Positions 1-46,028 of a DNA stretch of 56,547 nucleotides are shown in pieces (position 1 is the stretch's first letter; each line of letters opens with the position of its first letter). Position numbers and translations under genes: made by a program. The notes under the pieces were generated by a model. The model was not told where the DNA came from. It ran no database searches and worked only from the letters and a program-made list of their open reading frames with translations. The stretch lies in IMG/VR virus record IMGVR_UViG_3300037067_004615. One strand, 5' to 3'. The DNA is from an uncultured virus (IMG/VR IMGVR_UViG_3300037067_004615). Its lineage: Duplodnaviria > Heunggongvirae > Uroviricota > Caudoviricetes.

Positions 1-684
1 ACAACTACTACAACTTCAATTGCACATACAGGGGTTGCAGGGTGGGAATGGTTAGAAATTACACAAACCATAAATGATGGGGCAACTCATGTTTATTTAG
101 GTTGTCAGGTTAAAACAGGTGATACAACTGCTTATTTTGATCGTGCTTTTTGTATAGAGGGGACTGTAATTCCGGCAGAAGGAACATTGGTCTATTCTAG
201 CTCGGATAGTACATATTCTCATACAGGATTAACACTAGGTGTTACGTATTACTACGCACTTGTTGGTCAAAGTGGTGATTTATTCAGTGATACATATGCT
301 ACTATATTAATGACTACTACTGCTAGTGGGTTAACACCTACAGGGTTTGATTCATTTACTCAACCTGGTGGTAGCGATTATGATATATCTAACCCGAATA
401 TTGCAGTATTAGAAAATTTAGGGCCTTTTTATGGTTTGATAAATGGTTTTATAGATAGTTGGGGTATGGCAAGGGGTAACGCATGGGCCGGTATTGCAGC
501 ATTTTTAATTGTAATAATCGCATTGGTCGTGTATATTCGTTCGGGTAGTATTTCTGGTTCACTAGTGGTAGTATTAATATGTTTGATTATTACTTATTTC
601 TTGAAAATTACGTCCGGTTGGTGGATTTTCTTTGCACTAGCTGGTGTGTTGGGTTCGTTTGCATTACCCAAAAGGGAGGTATAG
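1..684 (+). CDS. 5'-truncated membrane-anchored protein: beta-rich ectodomain plus about 3 C-terminal TM helices
   Basis: Frame 1 is open from base 1 (TTTTTSIAHTGVAGWEWLEIT...) into ORF 187..684; hydrophobic C-terminal helices. Confidence 0.75.
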   Translation, partial: TTTTTSIAHTGVAGWEWLEITQTINDGATHVYLGCQVKTGDTTAYFDRAFCIEGTVIPAEGTLVYSSSDSTYSHTGLTLGVTYYYALVGQSGDLFSDTYATILMTTTASGLTPTGFDSFTQPGGSDYDISNPNIAVLENLGPFYGLINGFIDSWGMARGNAWAGIAAFLIVIIALVVYIRSGSISGSLVVVLICLIITYFLKITSGWWIFFALAGVLGSFALPKREV

Positions 685-688
685 TCGT

Positions 689-1027
689 ATGCGAATGTCG
701 CTCGTCATCGCTTTGACCATGCTATATATTTGTGGCATGATGATATCAAATACTTGTGAACAGCAGACTTTATTAGGGACAGGTGACTTAACTTTAGTCC
801 AACAATTGATAACGCCACCTGTATCTGATTGGTCTAATCCTGCGGCGGCCATAGGTTCATTAATTGCTATCCCCATATATTACATTATACTCATAGTAAG
901 GATAGGTACTTTTGATTTTGCTTTCTTTTATGGTACGTGGGAAGTTTTACGACTTGTATTCTGTGCAATTGGGGTAGGTATGACTGTTGGTTGGATAACT
1001 ATTTTACGTGGTGTCCATTCCCAATAA
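689..1027 (+). CDS. small multi-pass membrane protein, putative virion component
   Basis: GGGAGGT SD before ATG 689 (track start 644 overlaps the upstream gene); 3 hydrophobic segments. Confidence 0.7.
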   Translation: MRMSLVIALTMLYICGMMISNTCEQQTLLGTGDLTLVQQLITPPVSDWSNPAAAIGSLIAIPIYYIILIVRIGTFDFAFFYGTWEVLRLVFCAIGVGMTVGWITILRGVHSQ

Positions 1028-1043
1028 TTTAAGGAAGTGACTT

Positions 1044-1247
1044 ATGTATCGAAGTGCGATGGTGCTTGGTGCAATTATAATTGGTGGTGTAATATTTCTT
1101 GCGATGTTTCCATCTATGAGAACTGGGATGTCGATTGATACTACAGGTTGGATACCGTTGTTTGCTACGATGGTTAGATTCCTACCCTATGTTCTAATTG
1201 TATTTATTGTGCTGTGGTTTTTAGCTAAATCTCGAAGGGGGAATTAA
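1044..1247 (+). CDS. 67-aa two-helix hydrophobic protein with basic C-terminus; candidate coat protein
   Basis: AAGGAAGTG SD; two hydrophobic helices, second ATMVRFLPYVLIVFIVLWFL, ends KSRRGN. Confidence 0.65.
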   Translation: MYRSAMVLGAIIIGGVIFLAMFPSMRTGMSIDTTGWIPLFATMVRFLPYVLIVFIVLWFLAKSRRGN

Positions 1248-1250
1248 TAA

Positions 1251-4200
1251 ATGGTAATTTCTGGCAGACCTAGTGCATCTACTACAAAAACAGTATCATC
1301 TAAACAAGCAGGTGTAATTTCAGGTGTACCATCAAGTGATGTTGACACATCGAAGTACGTTTTGTTAGCAGATGGAACTTATGTTGATAAGTCAGCGTTT
1401 GAACAGTTACCTGAAGATGTGCAAAGAAAAGGTTTAACCGATGGATTAGATGCTTTACAAACGACTTTGCAATCAAAGCAGTCAGACTATAAAGACGCTA
1501 TGAAAATGCTTGAACCGTGGACTGATAAAGACGGTAAAGTTGACTTAGTAAAAGCGGTAAAAGAAGGTGTCGATACTGGAAGATTAAAAGATGTGGGTAT
1601 TGTTGATGAAGCATCTTTGAATAAAGTACAAAAATATCTAAGTGCAGTCGAAAAAGTAAAAGTTGAAATGCATCATGGTCAAGGATGGGGCGGTGGTTGG
1701 GAAGGTGGTTCTGTTAGTGGGATTATAAATGTCTTAGATAAAAATGGGAATATATCAGGTAGTTCTATTATATCGTATTATAGCCAAACTAAAGATGATG
1801 AAACCGTCAAGGATTTAGGGTATGATCTTGAACAAATAAAAAAGATTGTTAAGCGCATAGAAAGACGTAAAGAAGAAAGGCGTGAAGCAAAAGATGTTGG
1901 TGCAACCGCAGAAGAAATTGCGACTGTAGTTTATGATCCTGTTACCAATGCACCTATTGTACCTCCGAAACTTCCGAAAGCGGTGGCTGTTCCTGTTACT
2001 GTTGGTGGAATGGTTGTCGCTCCACCGTCTCAGATAACAGTAGTGCCTGAAGGTAGTGGCATTATCGAAACAATAAAACCAAAAGAATCACCATCTGAAG
2101 TTTATGACACTATTACCAATGCACCGATTATTCCGCCTGGGACAGAACCTATTACAGAATGGAAACCCGGTGCAGATGATGAAACGGCTTATGTTGGTGT
2201 GACAAAGGACTATATCGATAAAGTCAATGCAAGTTTTGTCCCTACACTTGAAAATCCATTACCACCTTATGTTGGTCAGGTTGTGGATACAGAGAATAAC
2301 TTAGTATTAGATGATAAGGGAAATCCCGTTACTGTTGATGAATTTAATGCTAAACTACCTGAAATTGATATCAAAGTAAAGGGCATAACAGAAGGTATAC
2401 TTAGTAAAACAAGCACTAAATTATCAGATGGACAGTGGGTTAATACTGAATATCTGAATAGTTTACCAACGACACTTCAAGAAATTGCAAAGGTTAAAGG
2501 GATTGATGCACTCAATAATGAGATAAAAAGCGTAAAAGACAAACTTAACCAATACAGGAATGTAATCCCCGCAACAGTAGTTGGTGGTATTATCGTTACG
2601 CCTCCATCTGTAGAAAAGGTTGATGGTGAAGATTCATATAATACACAGTCTATATATGATGCTTTAAGAGAGAATAAGATATCAGAAAATGATTTATCGG
2701 TGAAGTTTGGTAAAGAGAATGCAAAATTTATAGTTGAATCTAAACTGGTTCAAGATAAACTACGTAATGATGTTGCGTGGGTAGCTGAAGGCGCTGGCAT
2801 AAAAATTGCAGATAAAAATAATTTAACCGTAAACGAAATTCAAAACCTAATTGAGTCAAATGATAAATGGGCATTAGCATTAGGTACTGCCGGATATGAT
2901 GTTAATAAAATAAATCAAGCAATAGATAATATAGAACAAAAGAGAATTGAAGCACAATCTAAATTACAACCCTATTCGATTGATGCTGGTGAAGGGCCGT
3001 GGGATTACACAGTTGGCATAGAAAAACCAGAACCTATACAGACGCTTGAAACACTGGCTAAATTCCAAAGAGACAATCCCAACGACACTACTACCTTAAA
3101 GGTACTCTATGGTGAAGATGGGAGTAAACTTTATGATGAAGTCAAAAAATACAATAGTAATATTATAGAATATGTCAACTATCTGGATAAACAGGTTACA
3201 CCAACTGGTGAATTTGGGACATTTGAGGATGTCGCATTAAGAAACGCAGTCGATAGGGCTACAAACCAATTAGGTTTTCCTATTACTAAAGGTGGGTATG
3301 TAAACACATATTTAAACCTTAATCAAGAAGATAAAATAAAAGTTGCCAGATTGGTTTTACAAGACCCTGCGAGATCATCTTGGTTAGGGACAATAGGTGC
3401 CGATATCGACGTTGCCGCTTCTGAGAATTTAGTTTCTGGATTGGTATTAGGTGGTATACAACCCATTACGCATGTAGTTGGGAAACAAGTAACTATTGAT
3501 GAAGCAAGATCACTACTTAATGATACTTATGAATCAGAGTTAAACTCTACTAAGGAATTTAAACTTGAAAATGGGACAATCGATATTGAGCGTCTAAAAA
3601 ATAAGATGTTTGTCGATGATAAGTATAAAGAGAATATCTTAAAAGAAACAGGTTACTCTAATAAGCAAGACTTAATTGATAATCTGAATTATTACAACAA
3701 CGGCGTAAAGATCACAGGCGAAGAATGGGCAACCGCAGGTGCTACTGCGGCGTTGGATTTATTGTCGCTTATTCCTGCCGTTGGTGCTGGTAGAGTGTTT
3801 ACTACTGTGGGCGGAAAGATTGCTTCAGTCGGTATTCCCGTTGCTTCTGCTGGTGTATTTTTGCCATCTTCTATGAGAACTATTGTAAGTCCTACTTCAA
3901 CCACAGGCGAAAAGATATTAGCTGGTTCTATGCCGTTAATTTTAATTGCGGGTGGTGCAGTCGGATTAAAAGGTATTGGCAAAACTGCAAAACCCGAAGA
4001 TGTTGCTAATGCTACGTTGGGTGTTAAAGAAAAACCTGTTAATACAATGTTGGATAAAGCGGTTAAAGATGTTTCAGTTGCGGGGACTACTACTAGGACT
4101 ATAGCTAATGTAAAAGCTGTTCTACCAGAAACAATTAAAACTATTAATGATGCCGGATATAAAACCGAAGTTAACCTTGAAAAAATATTCCAAAGATTAG

Positions 4201-7200
4201 ATGATGCAGTTGTAAGAGTAAGAGATTACAAAGGTAATTTAATTAAACTTAAAGAAGCTGCGTCGAATTTAGGTGGGGATGTAAGAGTAAAGTTCGATAA
4301 CGCTCTATATAAGATAGAATTGAACGGCGAAAAAATGGCGCAGTCTTTTCAGGATTTAGTAACATTATCGACTGATTATAAAAGATTATGGAAACAGGTT
4401 GGTGACGCATTAAATGGACGTGTTAAAGTTGGTATTGCAACGCTAGAAGATATGCAATATCGTTTGGGTTTAACAGGCGAACAGCTTGCACAAAAATTCG
4501 ATGATATTACAAGTAAATTAACTGACTATCGTGGTAATTGGCAAGAACTCAAGTCAACTTTGGGCGAGATTGGCGGTGATATTAGTGCTAAAGTTGGGGA
4601 TATTTTATATAAAGGTGAATTAAATACTGAACAATTTGCCCAACAGATAGATGATATAATCAATCAAGTAAAAGAATATAAGGGAAATTGGCCTGCGCTG
4701 AAGAATAGTGTCCAGAATACGGTTAAAAAAGTTACAGATGTGGCTTTGAATACCTTATATAAAATGGATGTTAATTTAGAGAAATTAGCACAAAGAATTG
4801 AAGATGGTATGCCTAGAATATCAGATGTTAAGTCTGGTATTAATGAGATTAAACAATTAACTAAAGATTTAGATACTAAAATAAGAGATGGTATCAATGA
4901 GACTGCTTATAAACTAGATTTAAACAGTGAACGAATAGTACAACAATTAGATGATTATAAATCTAAACTGTTAGACTACAATACTAACTGGAAAGAGTTT
5001 AAGTCTAAAGTAAAAGATGTTGCGAAATTAACTAAAGAAGAATGGGATAACGTATTATATAAGTTAGATGTTTCAGGTGAGAAATTAAGTCAATCATTCG
5101 ATAATTTAGTATCTACAATAACTGACTACAAACGTAATTTGAATACTCTAAAATCTACGATAAGTGAAGTTAAGGGCGATGTTGGGGATTCTTTGTATAA
5201 AGCTGGTCTTAAATTTGAAGAATATGCACAGAAGTTAGATGATTTAATCGAACAGTCAAAAACTAAAAGAGAATTAGTTCACTTAGATTATCTAAAGAAG
5301 TCTGCTAAAAATCTTAAAGAGGATTTTAGCGTTGAATTGAGAATTGCAGAACTCGAAAGGACGATTAAGTCAAAACTATCCAATATCAAGAGTAGATTAG
5401 ATGCTGGTGTATTAGATGAATTACAGGCCGAAGCTGAAATAAAAAAACTAAGGGATACGACTGAATGGGTAGAACATACTCGATTAGTATCCGAATTAGC
5501 GAAAGAATTTAACGAACGTACTAAAATTGATGTAGGGTATAAAGTAAGTCGATTAGATAAAGGGTTAGAAAATCTTTCAAGATCGATATTGGGTGAAGAT
5601 ATTGCTAAACAACGTCTACCATTTGATGTGGTTGATTCGTTAAAACGTGGTGATATTACTAAATTTGAACAATATGTTGAAGAACTTAAAAAAGACGCTG
5701 AAAAGTTGCCAGAAGAACAAAAAGTTGAGGCAATAAAAGAACTTACTGAAACCCAAAAGATGTACAACGATTTAGTGCAAGAATTTAAAGAGGGGAAACT
5801 TAGTGGATTAAAAGTAGACGAGATTAGCATTACATTACCAGAGTCAATAGTTAAAGAACCAGTAATCGAAGGTATAACTTATGGTGAAACATTTGTTAAT
5901 CCCGAAGGTAAACAGTTAGTTAACGTTGACATCGATATGCGATATAATATCGGACAACGATTGGTAGATGATATCGCAAGACAGTATGGATTAAAAACCA
6001 AAAAAATAGTAGAAATGACTGAATTAGAAAAACAGACATTTGAGGGAACTTATGATACTCTTAATGATGTTATAAAATTAAAAACTAATGATATAAAAGT
6101 TATTCTACATGAATTAAGTCACGCTGAAGGTGTAAAGGACGCTAATATATCCGATGGATTTATACAAATATTTAGGGCTAATCCTGATTTAATGGAAAGT
6201 TTAAAAAAGATAAACGAAAAAACTGGTACTAATCCAGCTAATGAAATTCAGAGTGCATATTATGAATTAGTTAATGATGAATACGTAAGAAGAATAAGCG
6301 GGTTTGATGACGTACATCATAAAATGATGCAACTAGATGAATTAAACATGATTGGGGGGCAATTAGGGGTACAAAATTTAGGTAACAAGATTTTAGATGT
6401 TGCGGTTAAGAGTGTAGATAAATCAAATCCTAAGTTAATTAAACCGTTATCAGATGTAACAATTGGTGTGAAATATTTAATGCCAGAATATAAGTACGGT
6501 ATGGGTGCAACTGAAATAATTTCAAAAGCTGAAACAGTTTCAGATATTGAAGCACAATTAAAAAAGCAATCATTAGATATCGAAAGGCAAGTTAGAGAAA
6601 CACAAAAAGATATTGAGACCTATTTAGGTAGTATCCAACAAAGAACTAAAAATATTGCAGAGTTAGACGTACAACAACGTCGTGCTTTAATAGATGACTT
6701 AAAGAAATATCTGGATAGTTATAACGAACTACAAAAACGCCAAACAATTTTATCAGAGTCACAATTAAAGTCCATTCAAGATTTGATTGGTAGTCTCGAA
6801 GATTATCTTAAAAATCCGAACAAAGAATTAGACTTTGATAACCTTTTTAACCCTGAATCTTTACAAGATGTTGTGGCAAAATTAAAAGAAGAAACGTCTA
6901 AACCATCAACTTTAACACCTGAAGAAATTGCGTTATATGATGAACTAAATCGTAACACACAACAGTTAAATGAGTCTATGAACTTATTAGAGCAAGGACA
7001 AACACCTGAATCTTATAGAGAACGTGTACAACGTGAAAGTGCAGAAGGTATTTCTGGCGGTCGAACAATGGGACAAGGTAAGGGTGGTGAAGGTGTAGGT
7101 GAGTCTGCTGATTTTAGAATTAGCGAACTTACTACTCGTAATCAAGAGATCGCCAAACGATTAAGCGAAATTTCAGCACAAAAAGAAAAGATATTAACTG

Positions 7201-10200
7201 AAAGATTTGAAGTAGCATTAAATAAACGTCTTAAAGAATTAGGTTATAGTGATGATTATATTACCGCATTAGGCCAATCACGTAAATTAGATATTGTTGG
7301 CGGTAATAAACCGTACATATCTAAATTAGCAGGTGATATCGAACGTGGTTTTGAAATTATCGAAGAACGTAAAGTTGTTGAACCTGTTAAAGAACCTTGG
7401 CAAATGACAAAGGATGAATATAAGAAAAATAATCCGCATTCAGGCGGTGCTTTGACTGGTGATGCAGAAGCATTTGATAAATTATCAGATGATGCGATAG
7501 TGACTGTATTCCATGCAACATCACAGAATAATGCTAATAAGTTACTAACAGGTAAGGGTTTAAGGGAATATCAAGGTAAAGGTATTTTGGGCGAATCAGA
7601 TAAACTTTATGTTGGTTCTGACCCAGTATCGGTAGAGGGTTATGGAGAAGTTATTTTAGCGCTTAAAGTTAAAAAAGGTCAGTTATTAATGTCACCCGAA
7701 GCAAGGTGGAAAAACAGTGTGGGTGAGTCAATTATTGATGCAGGGACAGGTGCATTGTTAGATGGAGACCCTATATCAGTATCGATTGTTGAAAATGCGA
7801 GATACATCAGAGGTCATGAAGCATTAGTCAAACAAGCCATTTCGGAAGGGAAAGATGTATCGCCAGATGTATTAAAGGATTATCCTGATTTAGTTATTAA
7901 AAATCCGTGGGAAATGACTAAAGATGAAGCTATTATGGATTCACGTATAAAATTAGGTGGTAAAATGGATGATACCATCGCAAGGGCAGAACCAGATGGG
8001 AAGATAACTTTATCAGATGATTACTTTGAACACTCAACCGGAGATAAAAAAAATATCTGGTTACATGAGGTTGCCCATTATAAATCAGACATAATATTAA
8101 AAGATAGCGATGTGTTTTGGAGTATTACTGATAGTAACCTATTTGGTAAATATAATGAAGTAGCGATGAAGTGGAAACCGAATAAAGGGTTTTATGGGCG
8201 TAATGTAGATGAAGCGATAACTCAAGCATTAGTCGATTATGAATTAGACCCAGTAGCGTTTTTAGAAAAACATCCCGAACAATTTGAAATAATTAAAGTT
8301 ATATCCAAAGAAAAAGATTTATCAAAATTAAAAACTAAGATAGACGATATTTTAAAAGGTAAACAAAAACTAGAAGGTGGTGAAGGTGGTGTAGGATTAC
8401 CAGAAGAAAAACCCACAGAACCGAAAGAAGGTGGTGGTGGAGTTGCAGTAAAAGAAAGGGTTGAAACGAAACCTGAAATAAAAACAGAAGTTAAACCTGA
8501 AACTAAGAAAAATGTAATGACACCTACGGAACTTGAAGAACTGATGAAGAAAAAGACAGAGACACCTTCCAAGTTTTTTGAAGTACCTAAAACCGAAACG
8601 GAAATTGAACCGTTTGTTATACCTGATGTTCCGGGCGAATCATATTATACTATCGTTTGGGAAGATGGGAAACTATATACAAAATTAATGACTCCTGAAA
8701 TTATGCGTAGGGGTTACGTAGAAATCGAAACTGACACTGGTAGAGTATTGGCAAGTCGTGATGATTTATTACGAATGACAGTCGAACAATCAAGAAAACT
8801 ATTAGGTGATACAGATATAAGTAAGTATATTAGTGGAAGCCCTTATGTTATTTCTTATCCATCTCAAAAAGTGTTTGATAAACCTAAAGATGACACAAAG
8901 ACTAAACCTGTAGATGCTACGGAACCTAGAACTATAGAACAACCGGAACCGATTACTGGTAAACAACCAATCCCTATTAAGGGCATATCGCCTTTTGATG
9001 AACCAGTGGTTGAAACTCCACCATCAGTAAAGGATGAACTTAAATATGAGTTTAAACCTGCTACTTTATTATTGTCAAAAACAGCGGATGGTATTAGAAG
9101 AACAGTGTTGCCTACACCGGTTGATGATAAGTCTAAAGATGGTGGTATAAAAAAGTTTTCAGATGTTGTACCGAAAGAGGGTGTCATAACTTGGAGACAG
9201 GGTGCAATCTGGCATTACGTTGAACCACCTTATACCAAAGATGACTTCCATACAACAAGTAAACCTTTGGCAGGAACATATAAATTTTTTACGGGGACGG
9301 GAAGTGCTTATAAAACACTTCAAGTTTTGCCGATGAATTACAGGCTTGAAAAAGACGTAGTAGTAGACTTAGGTTGGGCAAAAATTCATATTGTGCCGAA
9401 AGGACGTGGTAATAACTTAGAGATAAAATACTTAGAGGGTGAAAAAGCTAACGTAGATAAAAGATTACCTGAAGGCGGTACAGTCCGTGACTCATACGTA
9501 GATAACCCTGAAGAAATTAAACATCGTGGAACTTATGCGGATTTACGTGATGCGTATGACTACTCTGATATTGGATTAAGACCGTCAGATGTTCCTGATA
9601 CTTTAACTGAAAGAATACCGAAAGGATTATCTATTAAACAATATATCCCTAATGAATTGCGTAAAACAGAATTGCCTCAATATAAGGCCGGTCGATTGAA
9701 AGTATATAATGTTGACGCTGAATGGTTGCGTAATCAAAACGTACCCATGTCAGGCGATAAAACAAGTATTGATTTCCAATCTGGAGGTCACTATTATTTG
9801 TATCCAGACTTAATTCCGAAAAATGAAATATGGTTGGATAGAAGATTAGGTATTCTGGATGCAAAGGCTGAACTGTTACATCAATTAAGGGAATATGGCG
9901 TAATGTCTAATAAAGTACCTTATGATATCGCTCATTCAGAATATGCTAATCCATTAGAAGCTGAAGGCCGTAGTAATATAAATGCACTTGACACAATGAT
10001 AAAACACGAGTTGGATAGATTTACACAAGGGAAGTTGAAACCTCAAAAAATGAAACAGATCAAGGAAGAATCGACTGATGAAGAAGTCGTCGTAAAACAG
10101 AGAAATGAATCTATAAGAGAACGTTCAACATTTAAGAAACCGAAGCAGCAGCAGAATATTGTGTTTGGCGAACCTATGTATCTAGGTCATAAGTTGTTAG

Positions 10201-37709: not shown

Positions 37710-37733
37710 GTCAATTAAAATTAAAAAGGTAAA

Positions 37734-39482
37734 TTGATGACTAAAAAGTTTCTAAAATTTGGTTTGCCGACTTTAGCAGTCATGCTAGTCGTTTCGCTAT
37801 TGTTTGTCTGGTCGTCTTTCAGTGTTTCTGTATCTGCTAGAAGTGAACTTGTCTCTGTCTCACTAGGTCAGAGGTCTTTTGCCGCAACTTCACCTGTTAC
37901 TCAATTAATCATAGGGGGATGTGATGACGCACTATCTACTACCGATGAGTACAATACTTTGCAGGGTGGATTATTATGGACTGCAACCGCAAACCAAATG
38001 TATCAATTAGTTTCAACAGCAGGAACGATCAATAAATTTTACCTTGAGCTTTCAACCGCACCTAATTCTGGTAGTTATACTATCACCCTGATGCTAAATG
38101 GTTCGGCTACCGATTTAGCGGTCACGATTTCGGCAGGTGGTAACGCTTATGGTTCTGATACCGTCCATTCTGTTACCGTTGCCGCTGGGGATTACATTTA
38201 TCTAAGATGTACCGATTTGTCAGCAAGTGGAACACCCACAGCTAGATGGTCGTGTGAGTTTACGGGAGATAATAACGGCGAGAGCCTAATTTTGGCGCAT
38301 TCATTGGCTTACAATAATGGGACAAATTATGCACCCATTAGTCATTCCTTTAGAAGTTCGTCAATCAATAGTGCACAACATTATCAGATAATCCCAACAT
38401 CCGGTTCAATAAAAAATCTTTATGTTCTACTTAGTACAGACCCCGGCGATTCTCCATCAGATTACAAATTTACCCTCTATGTCAATGGTTCAACCTCAAC
38501 TCTGACCTGTACTATAGTGGCCGATGCTACTATAGGAAACGATACTGCTCATTCAGTTTCAGTTGTCGCTGGTGATTATGTATATTTAGCGATAATCCCT
38601 GAGAATACTCCTTCAGCAAATTTAGTTGACGTATCGTATGGTTTTACGTTTTTAGCCAGCACCGATGGTGAATCAATAATATTAGGTCAATCATCTGACA
38701 CGCCTACAAATACACAAACAGAGTACAATTACCTAAATTCCACACTATATTCAAATAAATGGTCAACAACCGAAAAGTTCCAATCTGCCCACTCTGGATT
38801 TACCTTAAAGGATTTCTACGTTAAACAATCTGACACTTCAGGTTCCGGTAAACAATGGGATTACACAATCAGGGGTGGTGGCGGTTCAACCGCTTTAACC
38901 GTTTCAATCGCAGGTGCATCGGATACCACTGGAAACGATACTGCCCACACCTATGATTTAGTTGACTATGACGACCTCGCGATTATGGCTGTACCAACTT
39001 CAACACCAACTGCGAGGCGAGTCTATTGGGGTGTAGTGTGTTATAAAGCACCTGCCGCAACTTTCGATATCTCTAATGACCCATCATCTAAAGCGTTCGG
39101 GGTGGTTAATCCTAGTTCAACTTACTATGCAAAAGGTTCCGCACCTGCAAATCCTGTTGAGTCAGGAGATTGTACTTTTACAGTTACTAATGCAGGTACA
39201 GCGTGTGACTTAGATATGAAAGTTTCGGACTTTACAGGTGGAGTAGGATGGAACATAACATCCTCAGCACCTAGTACAGACGAAGCTAGAATTACAGCGT
39301 ATTATGAAGGTCAAGACCCTGCCAGTGGGTTAGTCTTAGCTAATACCGATGCTGAATTTTATGACGGTCTAGCAGTGAGTGCGACATTAAATTGGGATTT
39401 TAAGCAGGAGACGGCATCATCGTTTTCAGATGGTGTCGGAAAAACTGCAACGATTACAATAACGGCTGTCGCTGAGGATTAA
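37734..39482 (+). CDS. secreted surface protein with three beta-sandwich repeats and a C-terminal domain paralogous to 40749..41354
   Basis: Signal peptide; G(S/N)DT(V/A)H repeated 3 times; TYY...C.FTVTN...SDF.GG...TIT.T. Confidence 0.75.
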   Translation: MMTKKFLKFGLPTLAVMLVVSLLFVWSSFSVSVSARSELVSVSLGQRSFAATSPVTQLIIGGCDDALSTTDEYNTLQGGLLWTATANQMYQLVSTAGTINKFYLELSTAPNSGSYTITLMLNGSATDLAVTISAGGNAYGSDTVHSVTVAAGDYIYLRCTDLSASGTPTARWSCEFTGDNNGESLILAHSLAYNNGTNYAPISHSFRSSSINSAQHYQIIPTSGSIKNLYVLLSTDPGDSPSDYKFTLYVNGSTSTLTCTIVADATIGNDTAHSVSVVAGDYVYLAIIPENTPSANLVDVSYGFTFLASTDGESIILGQSSDTPTNTQTEYNYLNSTLYSNKWSTTEKFQSAHSGFTLKDFYVKQSDTSGSGKQWDYTIRGGGGSTALTVSIAGASDTTGNDTAHTYDLVDYDDLAIMAVPTSTPTARRVYWGVVCYKAPAATFDISNDPSSKAFGVVNPSSTYYAKGSAPANPVESGDCTFTVTNAGTACDLDMKVSDFTGGVGWNITSSAPSTDEARITAYYEGQDPASGLVLANTDAEFYDGLAVSATLNWDFKQETASSFSDGVGKTATITITAVAED

Positions 39483-39485
39483 AAA

Positions 39486-39514
39486 TTGACATTAGGCTTT
39501 GTTTGATGTATAAT
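39486..39514 (+). promoter_or_regulatory. consensus sigma70 promoter giving a leaderless transcript
   Basis: TTGACA-17-TATAAT; ATG at 39521 is 6 nt after the -10. Confidence 0.8.
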
Positions 39515-39520
39515 TATAAC

Positions 39521-39691
39521 ATGCGAACAAAGATTAATATAGAGCAGTTGAAATTAGAAATAAGGTCAATGAACCGTCAAAGTTTATTATATCGTACTTT
39601 AAGAGATGAATTAACAGAAATGGGATTTTGGAAAGCTAGGGAAAGAGGTAACTCAAAGTTGGGTTATCAGAGGATGCGTGAGAAAATATAA
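39521..39691 (+). CDS. 56-aa basic hypothetical protein
   Basis: Start revised from 39503, which lies inside the promoter. Confidence 0.6.
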   Translation: MRTKINIEQLKLEIRSMNRQSLLYRTLRDELTEMGFWKARERGNSKLGYQRMREKI

Positions 39692-39694
39692 AGT

Positions 39695-40765
39695 ATGTTA
39701 GAAAAAGTTACTTGTGAAGTTTGTAAGAAAGAATATTACACTATCGCACCTTTACATTTAAAAACACATGGTTTAACAATGAAAGAATATCGTTCGTTGT
39801 ATCCCAACGCCATTATACATTCAGATACAATTAAATTACATATTGGATTAAAAAGTCTAGGCAATAAGGTTAGTACCGGTATTCCTAGCTATAAAAAGGG
39901 TATAAAATTAGTTGATTTAGTTGGGGTCGAAAGAGCTAAAGAGATTGGTTCAAAGATATCAAAGAATAATAAAGGTCGTCCTAAAAAATTTAGTTTGAGT
40001 AGGTTAATTAAACAACGAAGTCCTGATTTTAAATTGATGATGTCTGAATTAAAAAGGAAGCAATTTAAAGAAAATCCTGATATTATTAAAAAGCATAGTG
40101 AATCATTAAAGCAGGGTTTTAAAAGTGGTAAAATAAAACTATGGAATAAGGGGTTAAAGTATGAGGATGATGAACGAGTTAGAACATATGTTGATAAAGG
40201 TGCTAAAATAAAAGGTGATGGAAGATTTAAAGGCGAAAATAATGCCTTATATGGTAAAACTTTTGAAGAAATATACGGTGAAGAAAAGGCTAACGAATTG
40301 AAGAAAGGAATGGTCATCAGAGGTGAAATATTATTTAGGTCTGAACGTTTAAATCAAATTAGAAAGTCGCCTGAATATTTAAGAAATAAGTATAACGCGG
40401 CACACAGAAAACCAAATAATAAAGAGATTATGCTAATGGGTATTCTGGATGAATTATGTCCCAACGAATATAAATATAATGGCGATTACAGTTTAGGTGT
40501 ATCGTTTGATGGTTTAGTACCAGATTTTTGGAATGTGAATGGACAAAAGAAAGTTATCGAACATTTAGGTGATTATTATCATGGTGAGTTAATACAGAAG
40601 CATCCTAAAGATGTTGAAGAAAAAGAAAAAATAGACAGATATGGTTCGTGTGGTGTAAAATGTTTAGTAATATGGGAACACGAATTAGTGAAAAGTAATA
40701 GGATGGTATTAATTGAAAAGATAAAGAAGTTTAATATGGAGGAATCGCATGAGAAGGTGGTTTAA
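39695..40765 (+). CDS. free-standing homing endonuclease: zinc finger, NUMOD3-like motif, Vsr/EDxHD-like nuclease domain
   Basis: CEVC...HLKTHGLTMKEYR; KGENNALYGK; PDF...VIEHLGDYYHG...LVIWEHEL. Confidence 0.75.
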   Translation: MLEKVTCEVCKKEYYTIAPLHLKTHGLTMKEYRSLYPNAIIHSDTIKLHIGLKSLGNKVSTGIPSYKKGIKLVDLVGVERAKEIGSKISKNNKGRPKKFSLSRLIKQRSPDFKLMMSELKRKQFKENPDIIKKHSESLKQGFKSGKIKLWNKGLKYEDDERVRTYVDKGAKIKGDGRFKGENNALYGKTFEEIYGEEKANELKKGMVIRGEILFRSERLNQIRKSPEYLRNKYNAAHRKPNNKEIMLMGILDELCPNEYKYNGDYSLGVSFDGLVPDFWNVNGQKKVIEHLGDYYHGELIQKHPKDVEEKEKIDRYGSCGVKCLVIWEHELVKSNRMVLIEKIKKFNMEESHEKVV

Positions 40766-41354
40766 AGTTAGGTTATTAACAAGTATTATGGTAGCTTTAT
40801 TAGTAGTATTAGTTGTTTCAGTACCTATTTCAAGTGCCACGACCGCAAGCATAGTTGTGACTGCAACCCCAAGTTTTGTTGGTATAACCATCTCGCAGAA
40901 CACATGGACAATCAACGGAATAGATGGTAGTGGTAAAATTGCGCCGAACACAACGTACTATTCCAATGGAACAGGTGCGACAGGCGATGTAACTGCACCT
41001 TCAGCTACAGTAGTCGATGGTGAATGTTATTTTACGGTAACTAATGCGGCAACAATTGTTACAGACCTTACTACTAATATGTCTGACTTTTCAGGTGGGG
41101 ACGCTTCTACTAATAGTAACTCAGGTTATGCGTCTAATGGTGCAACTACTTATGGTGCATCAACTTATATTAGTGGTTCAACTTGGCCTGACAATGCCGT
41201 AATCTTAAAAAGTAGTGCTAGTGATGCGATGAAATCAAGTCTAGCGGCAACTACCGATCTTAAATTCGGTGTGGCAATTAAAACTCAAAGTGATGCATGG
41301 ACTTCCGGTTCTGCGATGACGAGCACAATTACTGTGACATCCACAGCACATTAA
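40749..41354 (+). CDS. secreted Ser/Thr-rich beta protein, possible fibre or structural subunit
   Basis: GGAGG SD; signal peptide; homologous to C-terminus of 37734..39482. Confidence 0.75.
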   Translation: MRRWFKVRLLTSIMVALLVVLVVSVPISSATTASIVVTATPSFVGITISQNTWTINGIDGSGKIAPNTTYYSNGTGATGDVTAPSATVVDGECYFTVTNAATIVTDLTTNMSDFSGGDASTNSNSGYASNGATTYGASTYISGSTWPDNAVILKSSASDAMKSSLAATTDLKFGVAIKTQSDAWTSGSAMTSTITVTSTAH

Positions 41355-41376
41355 GTAGTTTAAGTAAAGGAATAAA

Positions 41377-42219
41377 ATGTTTAAGAAGTTTTTAATTGTA
41401 GCTAGTTTAGTTCTAGTGGTGGTTTTAATGTTGGTTGGTTGTTCGACTACTTATACTCCACCACCTATGCCTACTTATAATGTAGATGAACTGTACAATA
41501 AGATTACTGATTTACAAGCGCAACTTAATGAAGCAAAACTTGTAGCAGACGAACAACATTTAACTGATACTGAAAAGATTGATAAACTGACAGGCAAGAT
41601 AAATGAGTACCAATCACAAATAGATAAACAAACGAAACTTGACAATATGGATTGGGTCTATCCTGCAAAAATAGAATACAAAGGTTATCGGGCGGGCGTA
41701 GTTTGTCTGTATACGATTAAAGTCCATAACGGTAGCGATGAATCTAAAACATATAAGATGCAAACAGAGCAGGTCGTTTCAGATGATGTTACGTTTGCAA
41801 AAGTACCAAAGAATATAAGCGATTGGGTATCCTATGATGGATTTAATGAGTTTATCTTTTCGCTCGATGGTAAAATGTCTAAAGATATTTCAGTTCAATT
41901 CCTTATGCCGATTGAAGAAAGATTCTACTCTGTAACTAAGTTAAGTGATATCGGATTAGATAATAATACAATGGCAAACTTATCGCAAACACAACGAGAT
42001 ATAATGGTGCGTTTTATTAAGGATAGGACGGTAACTAAGTCAGCGATTGAAAATAATTTGTGGCAAGACGATGTGAAGTTATTGGTTGATAAAGGTTTAG
42101 TTATGCCCGATAAAAAATATCAGTTCATGGCGGTGTGTGGCGAAAATAAACCACAAGGGAATATCGTCACTCGTAATGCAATTAAATGGGTTGTAACCAT
42201 GAGCGAATTTAGTAAATAA
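41377..42219 (+). CDS. lipoprotein with coiled coil and beta domain
   Basis: Lipobox LVGC after hydrophobic core. Confidence 0.7.
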   Translation: MFKKFLIVASLVLVVVLMLVGCSTTYTPPPMPTYNVDELYNKITDLQAQLNEAKLVADEQHLTDTEKIDKLTGKINEYQSQIDKQTKLDNMDWVYPAKIEYKGYRAGVVCLYTIKVHNGSDESKTYKMQTEQVVSDDVTFAKVPKNISDWVSYDGFNEFIFSLDGKMSKDISVQFLMPIEERFYSVTKLSDIGLDNNTMANLSQTQRDIMVRFIKDRTVTKSAIENNLWQDDVKLLVDKGLVMPDKKYQFMAVCGENKPQGNIVTRNAIKWVVTMSEFSK

Positions 42220-42232
42220 AGAAGGTTCCGAT

Positions 42233-43051
42233 TTGCTCAATAAAATACTAAGAGTTTGTTTCGTAATCGTGATTGTGTTATTAAATGCCGTTCCTATCTA
42301 CGGTGATGATACAGTTACGATTACTGTTACAGGCGAACCGGATGTATCTTTACATGCACCAACTAATTTCTATACGACTTTAAGTGGGGCCGATTTAACA
42401 TTACATTGGACAGAAGAACCATCGGCAACTAGCACGATTATTGTAAGAAGTTTTTTAAGGTTTCCGCAATCAGTTACAGATGGTGCGGTCATTTATAACG
42501 GTACTGACGAAAGTATGGTTGTAGCACCTATTAATGAGCAAAGTCCACAGTATTTTTTTAGTGCGTTTAGTCAAAAAGGTGCTACGTATTCCACTACTTA
42601 TTCAGTAGCAACTAATGGAGGTATGACTATGTATCTAGCAATTTTTCTATCGGCAGGGGCGGTTTTCGCATTTCTGGCTTGGCGGTTCCGTGGTTTCGTG
42701 ATGGGAATTTTTGCAGGAGCCTTAATTATTTTCGCCGCATATTACACACGGAGTACGCCAATACCGAATATCGTTGTGGGTAGTGGTTTGGATACCGGAA
42801 TTTACTTAGTCATATTATCGTTCGGTATTTTTACAGCCTTAATTTCACTAGGTAAATTTATGGATAGTAGCGATGGTCGGTCATGGTTAGAAAGAGCGTT
42901 CGGTGGTGGTTCTGAAAGCACTCACGTGGTCAGTCATAACGGCGATTTGAAAAGATACAAACCCAATACTAGCACAATGGAAGGTCGTGCCGCCGCTTAT
43001 AGAGCTTCAATCCATCCGAAACTTAATCAACCGATCAGAAGGAAGCGTTAA
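42233..43051 (+). CDS. signal peptide, FN3-like domain and 3 TM helices
   Basis: APTNF...LTLHW...FPQSVTDGAVIYNGT; hydrophobic C-terminal half; basic tail. Confidence 0.7.
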   Translation: MLNKILRVCFVIVIVLLNAVPIYGDDTVTITVTGEPDVSLHAPTNFYTTLSGADLTLHWTEEPSATSTIIVRSFLRFPQSVTDGAVIYNGTDESMVVAPINEQSPQYFFSAFSQKGATYSTTYSVATNGGMTMYLAIFLSAGAVFAFLAWRFRGFVMGIFAGALIIFAAYYTRSTPIPNIVVGSGLDTGIYLVILSFGIFTALISLGKFMDSSDGRSWLERAFGGGSESTHVVSHNGDLKRYKPNTSTMEGRAAAYRASIHPKLNQPIRRKR

Positions 43052-43052
43052 T

Positions 43053-44021
43053 ATGCTGAAAAGAATTGCTTTATTAATAGTCAGCGTTATAGCGATACTC
43101 TTACTAAGTGTAGGTTGTTATCCTCAAGATAAAGTAGTCATACAAGATACACCAGCAGTTAATGTTAATGTGACAGGCGGAACTATTACAGCCACCGTTC
43201 CTACACCTTTACCAGTTGATATTGAGGGTGTTGATAATGTCAGCAATATGCTTCGTGTTTCATCACAAGACTACCTATACAGTATTGCAGAAGGTTCAAT
43301 ATCAGGGCATACTCCATTCGCAAAACTAGGGTTTAACGGCGATGTCGGTACAAACGAAGAAGATATTTGGATTAACGGTGGAATTTATGTTTTCCCTGAT
43401 ACACCAATGCAAATGGAACTTTTATCTTCAAGTGTTGAGGACGACCCCACAAAGGCAGATACAAGTGCCGGAACTGGTGTATGGTCAGTCAGAGTTTCAT
43501 ATCTTGACAATACTTATGCCGAACAAACTGAAGTAGTTGCATTGAATGGAACGGGCGTAGTTACTACAGTAGCAACTAATATTCTTAGAGTCAATGCCTT
43601 ACGTGCTGTAACAGTAGGGTCAACGTATAAAGCGGTCGGGACTATTACAATCCGTAACCTTGCTGATACACCTATCTACCGTCAAATTGGTGTAGGTTAT
43701 ACTCGTGGACGTGAAGCAATTTACACAGTCCCATTAGGTAAAACACTCTATATTACAAGTGTCGCTGTATCATCAGGTTATTCAACTGTGGGCAAAAATG
43801 TTAGATGGACTGCCAGAGCTAACTTGGACGATGTGGGCGGAACTATATTACCAGTTAATTTTTTCATGCCATACTTTGAAATTCAAACACAAGACTCAAC
43901 GTTTATCAGAGAATTTGAATTACCTATGAAGATACCTGCAACTGTAGATATTAAAATGTCTGCTATTAGCGATAGTGCTAACTCAGTATGTACCGTCGCT
44001 ATTCGGGGTTGGTTGGAATAA
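43053..44021 (+). CDS. putative lipoprotein with beta-sandwich structural domain
   Basis: MLKRIALL...SVGC lipobox from ATG 43053. Confidence 0.65.
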   Translation: MLKRIALLIVSVIAILLLSVGCYPQDKVVIQDTPAVNVNVTGGTITATVPTPLPVDIEGVDNVSNMLRVSSQDYLYSIAEGSISGHTPFAKLGFNGDVGTNEEDIWINGGIYVFPDTPMQMELLSSSVEDDPTKADTSAGTGVWSVRVSYLDNTYAEQTEVVALNGTGVVTTVATNILRVNALRAVTVGSTYKAVGTITIRNLADTPIYRQIGVGYTRGREAIYTVPLGKTLYITSVAVSSGYSTVGKNVRWTARANLDDVGGTILPVNFFMPYFEIQTQDSTFIREFELPMKIPATVDIKMSAISDSANSVCTVAIRGWLE

Positions 44022-44028
44022 TTCCCTA

Positions 44029-44057
44029 TTGACAAGTACTATTTTCGGGTGTATAAT
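44029..44057 (+). promoter_or_regulatory. consensus sigma70 promoter
   Basis: TTGACA-17-TATAAT, intergenic. Confidence 0.8.
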
Positions 44058-44104
44058 ATAGGAAAAATTACAATACGATAATACCAATAATATAGGCGGT
44101 TAAT

Positions 44105-44233
44105 ATGGGTACTAATATAAAGTGTCCTCATTGTCATAAGTCAGATAGAGTAAATAAATATGGTAAAACTGGTTGGAAAACTATTAAACAACGATATGCG
44201 TGTTTACGTTGTCGTAAAACTTTCTATAAGTAG
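44105..44233 (+). CDS. 42-aa IS1 InsA-like zinc-ribbon miniprotein (not in ORF track)
   Basis: MGTNIKCPHCHKSDRVNKYGKTGWKTIKQRYACLRCRKTFYK; AGGCGGT SD. Confidence 0.75.
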   Translation: MGTNIKCPHCHKSDRVNKYGKTGWKTIKQRYACLRCRKTFYK

Positions 44234-44242
44234 GTGGATAAA

Positions 44243-44452
44243 ATGAAAAAGAAACAAGTACGAAAGTCTATTGGAATAGACCCTTGCAAAGAAGCAAAGG
44301 AAACTCTTAAACGATTCAATGCAGACACAAAGGCTGGTCATAAAGGTGCAGATGAATATTGGTTAGGTCAATCAACCGCTTATGGTACGATGTGTACGCA
44401 AAAAGGTTTAAAGAATAAAACTAAAACTAAAGGACGTAAGACTAGAAAATAA
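44243..44452 (+). CDS. small Lys-rich protein
   Basis: AGGTGG SD before ATG 44243; basic termini. Confidence 0.6.
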   Translation: MKKKQVRKSIGIDPCKEAKETLKRFNADTKAGHKGADEYWLGQSTAYGTMCTQKGLKNKTKTKGRKTRK

Positions 44453-44481
44453 ATAGCGGTGCCTGAATAAGGGGGGGTAAA

Positions 44482-45078
44482 ATGGCAAGTTTAAATGTTG
44501 TTCAAACTGGAGTAGAAAAAGCAAGTAAGGTTTCTCATAGGTCGGGTAAATGGGCCACACCAAAAGAGATTGACCTTAAAACTAATCCCAAGCAAACACC
44601 TTTACAACAATTACTTACTCAATTAGTTAAAGATTCACGCATTGAGAAAAAATCAGGGATGCTTCTATACCGTCCTCAAAAGGGCGCAGGGCCAGGTGGT
44701 CAGGGCGAAGGAATCCCAGATAGGGGTAAACCTGACCGTGGTGATAGATGGAAACCACGTAGACCTGACGGAAAGAAACCGGGCCGTAGAGATGATGGTA
44801 AGAAACCTGACAGACCAGATAGACGTGATAAACCACATAAACCAGATAGAGATGATGCGGCGGAAAGAGAACGTAGACGTAAGCGTGATGAAATCGAAAG
44901 ACGTAGACGTGAAGCCGCTAAAGCTAAGAAGAAATTTGTTCATCCAAAAGATAGAAAGTCCAAAGGTAGAAGGGATGTTAGTCGAACAATAGCAAGAGGT
45001 GTAGCTACTCGTGCAGTTGCATCAGGTATCAGTCAAGGGATTGCACCTAGAGCTATTCAAACTGCAATTCTAGGATAA
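44482..45078 (+). CDS. Arg/Lys/Asp-rich low-complexity protein, putative DNA-condensing core protein
   Basis: KPDR/RRD repeats and ERERRRKR tract. Confidence 0.65.
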   Translation: MASLNVVQTGVEKASKVSHRSGKWATPKEIDLKTNPKQTPLQQLLTQLVKDSRIEKKSGMLLYRPQKGAGPGGQGEGIPDRGKPDRGDRWKPRRPDGKKPGRRDDGKKPDRPDRRDKPHKPDRDDAAERERRRKRDEIERRRREAAKAKKKFVHPKDRKSKGRRDVSRTIARGVATRAVASGISQGIAPRAIQTAILG

Positions 45079-45099
45079 TATAATAAGGAAGGTGTAAAG

Positions 45100-45290
45100 A
45101 TGGTAGTAAAAAGAAAGACCTTAAAAAGGCTGTAACTAAATCACGTAAGTCTAAGGGCAAGTGGTTTGGTGGGTTGACTGGTAACGTTGGTGGTAAGCGT
45201 CCCAAGAGTCAATTCTCAATGCCTAAAGTAACTCGTAAAGAGTTTAAATCAAAAGTTAAGCATATAGAGAAAAAACTTGGATATAGATAA
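45100..45290 (+). pseudogene. frameshifted small basic protein (or single-base assembly error)
   Basis: SD+ATG 45100 gives 11 aa then TAA; the -1 frame continues KAVTKSRKSK...KKLGYR to 45290 with no start of its own. Confidence 0.5.
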
Positions 45291-45304
45291 AGGAAGTGAT
45301 AAAA

Positions 45305-45451
45305 ATGAAAGTCAGTAAGAAAACAAAGAAGATGTTTAAGGGTGGTTTTGCCGGTGGTGTAAAAGGTAAGGTATTTAAAATTGGTGGTATGAGGCAAGCA
45401 GGTGAACGTCTTTATAAAAAGAAAAATTGGAAACCGGATATCAGTATCTAA
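45305..45451 (+). CDS. 48-aa Lys/Gly-rich protein (not in ORF track)
   Basis: MKVSKKTKKMFKGGFAGGVKGKVFKIGG...; AGGAAGTGA SD. Confidence 0.6.
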   Translation: MKVSKKTKKMFKGGFAGGVKGKVFKIGGMRQAGERLYKKKNWKPDISI

Positions 45452-45476
45452 AAGTAAATAATAGGATGGTGTTACA

Positions 45477-45683
45477 ATGACCGCTTCAGAAGAGATGATT
45501 GGGATTATTCCGCCTTTAATTGTAGCAGGGGCAGTAACTAAAATGGCTGGGTCTATGTTTGATAATGGCAAAAAAGAAAAAGTTAGAACACGCACTATCA
45601 TTAAAAAAGTCTATGTCAAACGTAAAAAAGCTCATGCTAAAAGAGTACAGAAAATTAAAAAGACTGTAAAGAGATATTTATAG
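45477..45683 (+). CDS. small protein with hydrophobic N-terminus and very basic C-terminus
   Basis: AGGATGGTG SD; IGIIPPLIVAGAV then K/R-rich. Confidence 0.65.
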   Translation: MTASEEMIGIIPPLIVAGAVTKMAGSMFDNGKKEKVRTRTIIKKVYVKRKKAHAKRVQKIKKTVKRYL

Positions 45684-45692
45684 GAATTTTGA

Positions 45693-46028
45693 ATGAAAGA
45701 TAACTTAGACTCTCGTTTGAAGTATCTAAAACAACAAGCTAAAAAACGTGGGTTAAAAGTCTCTGTCGATAAAAGACTAGATAAAACTCCGTATCGTGCG
45801 GCTCATCCATTATCGAATAAATACGTCGATGATATTGTTGTTAAGAAAAAGTCTATTACAGTTGCACCATTCGTAGCACGAAATAAAAAGAAAATGGTCA
45901 TGGACGTAAACCATGAGTTGATCGAATATAAGTTAGCTTGTAATGGTGTTGGATATAAAAAGGCCCACACTATCGCCAATCGGAAACAGCGTGGGATTTT
46001 TAGGTCAGACTATAAAGATCGTTGTTAA
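45693..46028 (+). CDS. basic protein with HELxE...YxxAH motif
   Basis: NHELIEYKL...GYKKAHTIA. Confidence 0.6.
   Translation: MKDNLDSRLKYLKQQAKKRGLKVSVDKRLDKTPYRAAHPLSNKYVDDIVVKKKSITVAPFVARNKKKMVMDVNHELIEYKLACNGVGYKKAHTIANRKQRGIFRSDYKDRC

Follow-up and report, generated by a model that had tools for sequence, protein, structure and literature searches.

The window analyzed here, that is, the whole stretch of 56,547 nt, represents about half of a 118,547-base contig that continues at least 1,401 bases to the left of the window; of this contig, the searches covered the window, with 62 kb lying beyond it. Near-identical pieces of the contig occur in a second study. The features of the window are collected in table 1. 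By hydropathy and sequence reading, 19 ORFs in 1..46028 carried a signal peptide, lipobox, or membrane helix (lipoboxes in the proteins at 41377 and 42987), where the first-pass annotation had estimated about 15 such genes. The absence of terminase, portal, HK97 capsid, and endolysin noted in that annotation held for the 71 ORFs of the window, this being part of the 118,547-base contig, as none of these families was matched in Pfam or PHROGs. The same was true of integrase, relaxase, and T4SS families, and thus of the conjugation genes that had been named as a sign against a virus; a NCBIfam scan of 46 of the 71 ORFs likewise returned none of these hallmark or mobility families. Partition genes found no match in the window (Pfam, PHROGs, and NCBIfam), nor did pleolipovirus families among its ORFs (PHROGs and Pfam), and neither tRNA genes, Rfam families, nor terminal repeats were found within it. 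Pfam matches to a scaffold (E 0.003) and a holin (E 0.008) were weak and under the cut-off.

Table 1. Features of the 56,547-nt window
Position	Strand	Feature	Basis
1..684	+	3′ part of gene; beta-sandwich protein with a three-helix anchor; probable adaptor or spike of the tail (SSV19 B210/VP4 type)	Profile ranks
689..1027	+	Membrane protein of 112 aa with three helices; probable nozzle of the tail (SSV1 C166/SSV19 C131 type)	Profile rank
1044..1247	+	67-aa hydrophobic helical hairpin like spindle-virus capsid proteins	HMM rank, hairpin model
1251..10220	+	Giant protein, 2,989 aa; possible internal or entry protein	Hydrophobic stretch 888-906, coiled coil, two HExxH motifs
10291..10833	+	Membrane protein of 180 aa, corresponding to His1 ORF20/WyrdV1 gene 25	Positional set first, HHalign 37%
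10842..11288	+	A154-like protein immediately 5′ of ATPase	HMM rank and position
11293..11949	+	Morphogenesis ATPase of pI/Zot-like type, soluble and lacking a membrane anchor	Family HMM, HHalign
11952..12440	+	B115-like winged-helix protein; coiled-coil protein of 72 aa resembling the B277 N-terminus	HHalign
12444..16404	+	GtrA-like flippase; three GT-C/PMT-like glycosyltransferases, all multi-pass	Pfam GtrA, PMT_2
16405..16433, also 10229, 18242, 25135	+	Repeated sigma-70-type promoter	Motif scan
16462..28944	+	Sugar synthesis/modification cluster	Pfam, NCBIfam
29759..44021	+	Surface proteins (Fn3, beta-helix, Ser/Thr-rich) that are exported, anchored in the membrane, or lipoproteins	Hydropathy, Pfam, PHROGs
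39486 and 44029	+	Perfect-consensus sigma-70 sites	Motif scan
44234..46028	+	Five small proteins rich in Lys and Arg; candidate core proteins for DNA condensation	K+R 26-31%
46067..49231	-	APRT and class II ribonucleotide reductase NrdJ, beyond 1..46028; host marker	NCBIfam above cut-off
54915..56387	-	Family B DNA polymerase, DNA_pol_B_2 (protein-primed-like) type, beyond 1..46028	Atlas structure

The Zot/pI-like ATPase of the first-pass annotation was recovered at 11293..11949, which matched Zot in Pfam (E 5.8e-4, under the curated cut-off) and the Zot/pI families of PHROGs (E 3e-5 to 8e-4), and in which hydropathy revealed no membrane helix. This ATPase defines a family not previously described, found in at least 79 metagenome loci on contigs of up to 102 kb and sharing one conserved gene block. 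In the literature covered, which left most subscription journals outside, no description of the large family was found, and the nearest was a preprint on IME1 (bioRxiv 10.64898/2026.09.15.751708). We queried a reference panel of 159 archaeal spindle-virus proteins with family HMMs and compared the family profiles by HHalign with 10 reference sets of our own grouping. The ATPase HMM matched WyrdV1 (E 3e-14), Muninn virus (E 3e-12), and SSV1 B251 (E 0.002), and HHalign assigned 99.3% to its spindle-virus counterpart set; in the phage collection, the single match of a family member was WyrdV1. In a quick tree, the family stood apart from WyrdV1, L001, and L081 (SH-aLRT 96, long branches). Among the loci with room for them, the winged-helix gene was present in 14 of 16 and the coiled-coil gene in 15 of 15, with HHalign probabilities of 14.9% and 40.7%, respectively.

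Upstream of the ATPase, the A154-like gene was present in 52 of 55 loci with room and the gene for the 180-aa membrane protein in 34 of 39. For the A154-like family, the top six of the 159 panel proteins were the genes preceding the ATPase in WyrdV1, Muninn virus, SSV1, L081, ASV1, and SMF1 (best E 0.006; HHalign only 6.5%), and fold searches with its model returned generic helical matches only. The family of 1..684 had members in 32 loci; its best HMM match was ASV1 B208 (E 0.07), the orthologue of SSV19 B210, and its C-terminal profile placed the B210/B78/VP4-anchor set first (HHalign 23.8%). The protein at 689..1027, which had been suggested to be a coat protein, instead bore the closest resemblance to the tail nozzle of fuselloviruses (C166/C131): its family, with members in 28 loci, placed the C166 set first over 112 columns at an HHalign probability of only 8.2% (ASV1 B130 being SSV19 C131), and the HMM ranking of the 159-protein panel did not pick C166. 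Gene order and protein architecture also agreed with a spindle-virus tail module. Direct profile searches of solved structures with the adaptor- and nozzle-type families did not retrieve the SSV19 tail chains. Giant ORFs related to 1251..10220, whose HExxH motifs lie at 1620 and 2272, occurred in 10 loci, and the protein matched no family at cut-off. Taken together, nine of nine profile queries, representing eight families, placed their positional counterpart first among the 10 sets in HHalign. By itself, only the ATPase match was strong, the other HHalign probabilities being 0.5-41%, and the adaptor, nozzle, and wHTH families picked their counterparts more weakly than the ATPase, A154-like, and hairpin families. 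These HMM and positional ranks give the spindle-virus-like gene set firmer support than had been possible when it was proposed from the sequence.

The hairpin at 1044..1247 placed SSV1 VP3, HRSV-BLv25 MCP, and His1 MCP as the top three of the 159 panel proteins (E 0.02-0.03), and local shuffles reached the real scores in 12 of 500 cases for His1 and 8 of 500 for VP3. Its predicted structure was a hairpin, the Atlas lead was His1_capsid (0.82), and in relatives (L065:743) a surface domain is inserted into the hairpin, comparable to the shorter insert of VP3. The Pfam His1_capsid model did not match the hairpin, HHalign against the capsid set gave 1.35%, and fold searches with the model returned only generic, non-diagnostic helical matches. 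The hairpin had 19 homologues only and stood at its place in only 4 of the 27 loci holding both neighbors. Judging from these similarities, 1044..1247 is probably a minor (VP3-like) capsid protein. Thus, of the two small hydrophobic proteins that had been read as coat, one proved capsid-like by rank, though probably minor, and the other nozzle-like with three helices, so that no major capsid gene is assigned within the window. When 2,802 ORFs were searched with an archaeal capsid profile, no universal capsid gene emerged. A supposed identity of the 42233 family with A82 was rejected, and members of the families labelled A5, A7, and A8 matched no relevant PHROG or Pfam family.

The lack of a universal spindle-type major capsid in these searches could mean that a non-lytic bacterial virus of this kind builds a pleomorphic, enveloped, or filamentous particle from another major protein and retains the spindle-type tail module as a vertex and extrusion machine only. 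To our knowledge, all known spindle viruses fall below the genome size of >118 kb seen here, and the many large surface proteins and lipoproteins, together with the filaments and vesicles in IME1 fractions, would also fit such a particle. We regard it as unlikely, since nozzle-, adaptor-, A154-, and capsid-like genes co-occur as they do in spindle viruses and the L065:743 hairpin repeats the VP3 arrangement.

Downstream of the block, the expected glycosylation set was borne out by matches to GtrA and PMT_2 and, in 16462..28944, to a GT2, a TPP enzyme, an aminotransferase, an HddA-like kinase, a GmhA-like isomerase, and three radical SAM enzymes, interspersed with small ORFs; homologues of the GtrA/PMT-like genes adjoin the ATPase in relatives. 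Zn-finger and endonuclease-like genes are scattered through the surface cluster, and the relatives encode 21 proteins with lipoboxes. Six small ORFs were strongly basic, in agreement with the core-like proteins of the first-pass annotation; by analogy, those at 44234..46028 may have a VP2-like role, and they had no homologue in the metagenome loci of the family. The many cell-like genes (glycosylation, TPP enzyme, APRT, and FtsH in the relative L052) could also belong to a large plasmid-like or integrative element that forms no true virion and transfers itself by means of a vesicle or surface appendage built with the module. In the viral-collection scans, no match was obtained with the ATPase, polymerase, hairpin, or A154-like sequence as query, a single archaeal-type contig being otherwise recovered, and this near-absence would suit such an element. 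Exact sequence patterns of the contig were likewise absent from the viral and metagenome collections. We nevertheless consider it quite improbable, because relaxase, T4SS, partition, and integrase genes were unmatched in the window, the ATPase had no plasmid match, and the window has a phage-like run of small ORFs, an NrdJ, and a B2-type polymerase.

The polymerase at 54915..56387 reached a TM of 0.79 to an Atlas structure cluster that was 79% PF03175, and had no match in Pfam, PHROGs, PDB sequences, or the phage collection. Its relatives are labelled mostly Uroviricota in the Atlas, which would suit a tailed phage with its head and tail genes in the 62 kb of contig beyond the window and the block as a second module. 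So would the size, usual for tailed phages, the giant protein, which we take to be reminiscent of packaged polyvalent proteins, and the tail-fibre/spike domain matches in the window and relatives, including domain-level PHROG tail matches at 33588 (E 6e-10) and 36226 (E 6e-7). However, both of these proteins, like the surface proteins in general, bear signal peptides, which are N-terminal in these two, and terminase, portal, and HK97 found no match either in the window or in 99 and 75 proteins of relatives (representatives from 501 kb of flanks). In addition, tailed phages are easily called in the viral collection, from which this contig and its relatives are mostly absent, and we judge a tailed phage very improbable.

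Sigma-70-type promoters, reported in the first-pass annotation, were confirmed by 15 strong sites against a mean of 5.9 (maximum 12) in 30 shuffles, five of them 53-57 nt 5′ of a start codon. In 29000..48000, a loose promoter scan did not exceed chance (55 vs. 63). NrdJ, whose use for host assignment had been recommended, was 64-67% identical to Dehalococcoidia/Chloroflexota enzymes, and 18 of 18 taxon-named matches were Chloroflexota/Dehalococcoidia. Together with the lipoboxes, these signals support the bacterial host originally proposed and differ from the archaeal hosts of known spindle-shaped viruses. The host is most likely a peptidoglycan-less member of the Dehalococcoidia, wall-less groundwater bacteria, a class assignment resting mainly on NrdJ, a single gene that can be borrowed. 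Peptidoglycan was lost in Dehalococcoidales (PMC10284905). The species-genome scan contained no family member, its single weak match having been rejected by the full profile, so no provirus or bin links the family to a host. An archaeal spindle-shaped virus that had acquired bacterial genes would accord with the Asgard hosts of the nearest named relatives and with a GT2 nearest to archaeal AglJ models (NCBIfam). We consider it extremely improbable given the sigma-70 promoters 5′ of structural and accessory genes, the Chloroflexota/Dehalococcoidia-type NrdJ, and the separate position of the family in the tree.

Among known systems, the wyrdviruses (WyrdV1) and Muninn virus share with the family a soluble pI-like ATPase preceded by A154-like and membrane genes, an adhesin with a three-helix anchor, and a His1-like hairpin; however, they have genomes of 13-16 kb, archaeal hosts, and a capsid gene before the adhesin, and lack the glycosylation cluster, NrdJ, and giant protein of the window. 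Some wyrdviruses encode B-family polymerases (bioRxiv 10.1101/2021.07.29.453957). The Fuselloviridae (SSV1, ASV1, SSV19) and Halspiviridae (His1) resemble the window in the probable spike-adaptor-nozzle set, the B115 wHTH, A154 directly 5′ of an anchorless B251-type ATPase, the VP3-like hairpin, and basic VP2-like proteins, a resemblance that in sequence, the ATPase excepted, lies at the limit of detection, and the His1 genome encodes a B-family polymerase and a glycosyltransferase, both kinds also being present here. They differ in their 14-24 kb genomes and archaeal hosts, and fuselloviruses integrate. Spindle-shaped viruses have genomes of about 13-25 kb (12.7-24.2 kb in seven references), far below the 118,547-base contig. 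The Inoviridae/Tubulavirales share a pI/Zot-family ATPase, small hydrophobic proteins, and a bacterial host, whereas Inoviridae have ~4-11 kb ssDNA genomes and a pI with the membrane helix that the window ATPase lacks. IME1, compared by description only, has been proposed to comprise non-tailed, membrane-released Dehalococcoides viruses with an SSV1 VP1-like protein (bioRxiv 10.64898/2026.09.15.751708). It shares the Dehalococcoidia host, the absence of tailed-phage hallmarks, the pI-like ATPase, hydrophobic proteins, and proposed non-lytic release; by contrast, it is integrating and 21-28 kb in size (four to five times smaller), with hydrophobic genes 3′ of the ATPase, no described glycosylation cluster, and a tyrosine recombinase, resolvase, and primase-helicase, none of which was matched in the window as part of the 118,547-base contig. 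The suggestion of an undescribed lineage of large extruded viruses is therefore supported in part: the ATPase family itself is undescribed, but non-tailed, membrane-released Dehalococcoidia viruses had already been proposed with IME1.

From the gene content, conserved order, homology ranks, and bacterial signals established directly, we infer a particle, its shape, its release route, and its host class. The explanation that we favor, and hold to be probably correct, is a tailless dsDNA virus of at least 118 kb, assembled at the membrane by the machinery of archaeal spindle-shaped viruses (fusellovirus, halspivirus, and wyrdvirus) and infecting a bacterium, most probably one of the peptidoglycan-less Dehalococcoidia. 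In such a virus, the capsid-type hairpins, nozzle, adaptor, and spikes would enter the cytoplasmic membrane, and a viral lipid-linked sugar pathway would glycosylate the inserted structural proteins outside it. The DNA, replicated with the aid of the B-family polymerase and NrdJ, would be condensed by the basic proteins, and the soluble pI-like ATPase, for which the 180-aa membrane protein and the A154-like protein would serve as a dock, may power extrusion or budding, with exit through the S-layer without lysis.

Spindle-shaped viruses are regarded as exclusive to archaea in two sources (PMC12042106; bioRxiv 10.1101/2021.07.29.453957). At somewhat less than even chances, we proposed that the loci represent a widespread new family of true spindle-shaped bacterial viruses, with genomes of >100 kb, the largest of the morphotype, their own glycosylation pathway, and a full tail of the fusellovirus type. 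In this view, the family would have moved from archaea into Dehalococcoidia after that lineage lost peptidoglycan, the type of envelope and not the domain setting the range of a virion architecture. If true, a bacterial family with genomes five to eight times the size of those of the references would break the archaea-only rule and would allow the idea that spindle-type assembly is permitted by a wall-less S-layer envelope to be tested clearly. With at least 79 metagenome loci and yet a near-absence from the viral collection, the family seems to be missed by current tools, and its likely hosts are abundant subsurface bacteria, including organisms used for the clean-up of chlorinated solvents.

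Against 50,697 phage genomes, an ATPase of the 11293..11949 family matched a single record, the Lokiarchaeota virus WyrdV1. HMMs built solely from members of the new family were compared with a panel of 159 proteins, comprising most of the larger annotated ones of SSV1, ASV1, SMF1, His1, HRSV-BLv25, WyrdV1, Muninn, and two compact relatives, L001 and L081. The top eight panel proteins for the ATPase HMM were all ATPases (WyrdV1, E 3e-14), and for the 10842 family the six highest ranks went to genes directly preceding those ATPases, of which the panel contains nine (best E 0.006), although three of the six were close fusellovirus orthologues and thus not independent. In the same panel, the wHTH, 72-aa, and 1..684 anchor HMMs picked the B115 orthologue of ASV1, B277, and ASV1 B208, respectively; the HMM of the 689 family did not single out C166 there. 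In a profile-profile comparison with 10 reference sets, which we had grouped by position, the positional counterpart came first for 9/9 queries (probabilities 99.3, 40.7, 37.3, 23.8, 14.9, 8.2, 6.5, 1.35, and 0.5%). ASV1 B208 and B130 correspond to the SSV19 adaptor B210, described as a beta-sandwich with three helices, and to the four-helix nozzle C131 (PMC9351363); the products of 1..684 and 689..1027 fit these respective builds. Thus, the case for a link to spindle-shaped viruses rests on one strong match, that of the ATPase, and on weak matches in the right order.

The ATPase had 40 relatives at the 50%-identity level, and a 19-sequence alignment of relatives retrieved 89 stretches of metagenome DNA; the best 80 were retained. 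Among these 80, 79 were of the window's type, with the largest contigs reaching 102, 71, and 64 kb; the remaining one (L081), like L001 from a viral collection, was a compact archaeal-type relative. Both L001 and L081, on spindle-virus contigs, carry, on the opposite strand, a capsid gene that is clearly His1-like. The conserved order was giant protein, anchored surface proteins, 689-like, 10291-like, 10842-like, ATPase, lipoprotein, membrane protein, wHTH, 72-aa protein, and glycosyltransferases. A TMEM260-like protein O-mannosyltransferase family recurred by the block in six relatives (L044, L052, L053, L059, L070, and L074), in one case with an intein; in its place, the window carries GT-C-like genes.

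Features of the window and of related loci (fractions are loci with room for the gene)
Feature	Position	Strand	Observation
1..684-like gene	1..684		17/17
689-like gene	689..1027		14/19
67-aa protein	1044..1247		helical hairpin in predicted model
Giant protein	1251..10220		two HExxH motifs, repeated PW[EQ]MT motif
10291-like gene	10291..10833		34/39
10842-like gene	10842..11288		52/55
wHTH gene			14/16
72-aa gene			15/15
InsA-like zinc-finger mini-genes	18707-18847, 31136-31267, 44105-44233	+	two right behind strong promoters; homologues in L034, L076
Large exported proteins	31271-33571, 36226-37485, L020:3-1538		two-helix anchor at end, halves like spindle capsid helices in reverse order
Hairpin between convergent runs	46030-46065		possible bidirectional terminator, unscored by terminator scan
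Run of small ORFs	49580-52810	-	many have the same short ribosome-binding repeat in front and at their end
Family B polymerase, DNA_pol_B_2 type	54915..56387	-	structure, TM 0.79
Giant-protein relative	L070:3-3761		intein/HINT domain
FtsH, GT4, epimerase, diacylglycerol kinase, cytidylyltransferase, PAPS-reductase-like genes	L052:12769-17833, L030:14460-17885, L076:16669-17496		accessory genes or flanking host DNA
pI-like ATPase gene of Muninn virus	L086, about 8030-8723	-	missing from record's annotation

The genes of the window form a plus-strand run up to 46028 and then a convergent minus-strand run. The first-pass annotation had reported about 15 exported or anchored proteins, a Zot/pI-like ATPase, and no recognisable terminase, portal, HK97 capsid, or endolysin, all of which held: 19 plus-strand ORFs carry a signal peptide, lipobox, or membrane helix, 11293 has a weak Zot/pI match, and Pfam and PHROGs scans of 71 window ORFs (NCBIfam, 46 of these) found none of these hallmark families, nor integrase, relaxase, or T4SS families. 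Tailed-phage-like signals were limited to domain matches in 33588 (E 6e-10) and 36226 (E 6e-7), both exported proteins, and to sub-threshold scaffold and holin matches. Its sigma70-type promoters fared unevenly, with 15 strong sites versus 5.9 in shuffles, whereas a looser scan gave a count no higher than chance. The relatives' flanks (501 kb) yielded 102 cluster representatives with lengths of 140-1,700 aa; Pfam (99 representatives, three reverse-frame ORFs being left out) and PHROGs (75 proteins) found lectin, beta-helix, collagen, glycosylation, nuclease, and tail-fibre domains and two domain-level 'virion structural protein' matches, and no terminase, portal, or HK97 capsid. The run of small ORFs resembles an array of recombining cassettes that carry early or anti-defence genes. 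The polymerase is of the type also used by His1 and Muninn, and its nearest clusters bear automatic Uroviricota labels; any protein priming is putative.

The window's proteins were placed on a 118,547-base contig; the best sequencing run was a groundwater metagenome, and near-identical pieces occurred in a landfill metagenome from another study. From the lengths, we infer that the remaining 62 kb lie left of the window. Since the sequence extends leftward and one ORF runs off the right end, the genome may exceed 118,547 bases.

The capsid is the weak point of the spindle-virus reading. A comparison of the 67-aa protein with SSV1 VP1 and the His1 coat protein had been proposed: SSV1 VP3 and the HRSV-BLv25 and His1 capsid proteins were the panel's top three (E 0.02-0.03) and the Atlas lead was His1_capsid (0.82), but fold searches were non-diagnostic, only 19 homologues were found, with no second copy on the contig among them, and the gene lay between its neighbours in 4/27 loci. 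In one relative, this hairpin contains an insert of 140 aa. Our reading of the 67-aa protein is that of a minor component of the capsid; the gene for the major one probably lies in DNA outside the window. More speculatively, exported proteins with the two-helix anchor may slot into the capsid lattice.

For the host, NrdJ was searched with its C-terminal 180 aa: among the 119 best non-self relatives, 18/18 taxon-named matches came from Chloroflexota, including nine from Dehalococcoidia or Dehalococcoidales, with 64-67% identity over the aligned length versus no more than 46% for the ten top-scoring phage matches. Lipoboxes occurred in 21 relative proteins, and one scan of species genomes returned no family members. 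Archaea have an S-layer. Peptidoglycan synthesis is described as lost in Dehalococcoidales (PMC10284905). Such a loss would leave a membrane and an S-layer, as in the archaeal hosts of spindle viruses.

A preprint proposes IME1, integrating viruses of Dehalococcoides of 21-28 kb that encode SSV1 VP1-like proteins and a pI-like ATPase and are enriched in particle fractions (bioRxiv 10.64898/2026.09.15.751708); hence we make no claim of a first, yet the preprint lends support to both host and mechanism. The lineage of large bacterial membrane viruses suggested earlier is accordingly not the first of its kind, although we found no published description of the large family in the literature. Compared with IME1 as the preprint presents it, the present family is at least 4 times larger and differs in its replication module and in having a tail set of fusellovirus type and a glycosylation pathway of its own. 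Inovirus families have been defined by pI (PMC6813254). The system, known here from its genes, works like that of a fusellovirus or wyrdvirus, but falls outside those families by host and size, and its capsid match is ambiguous. Taken together, we consider the best explanation, with reasonable though far from full confidence, to be a tailless dsDNA virus that assembles at the membrane with archaeal spindle-virus machinery in a bacterial host, most likely a peptidoglycan-less member of Dehalococcoidia. The feature is real and represents a new and large form of the assembly system of spindle viruses, probably one of bacteria.
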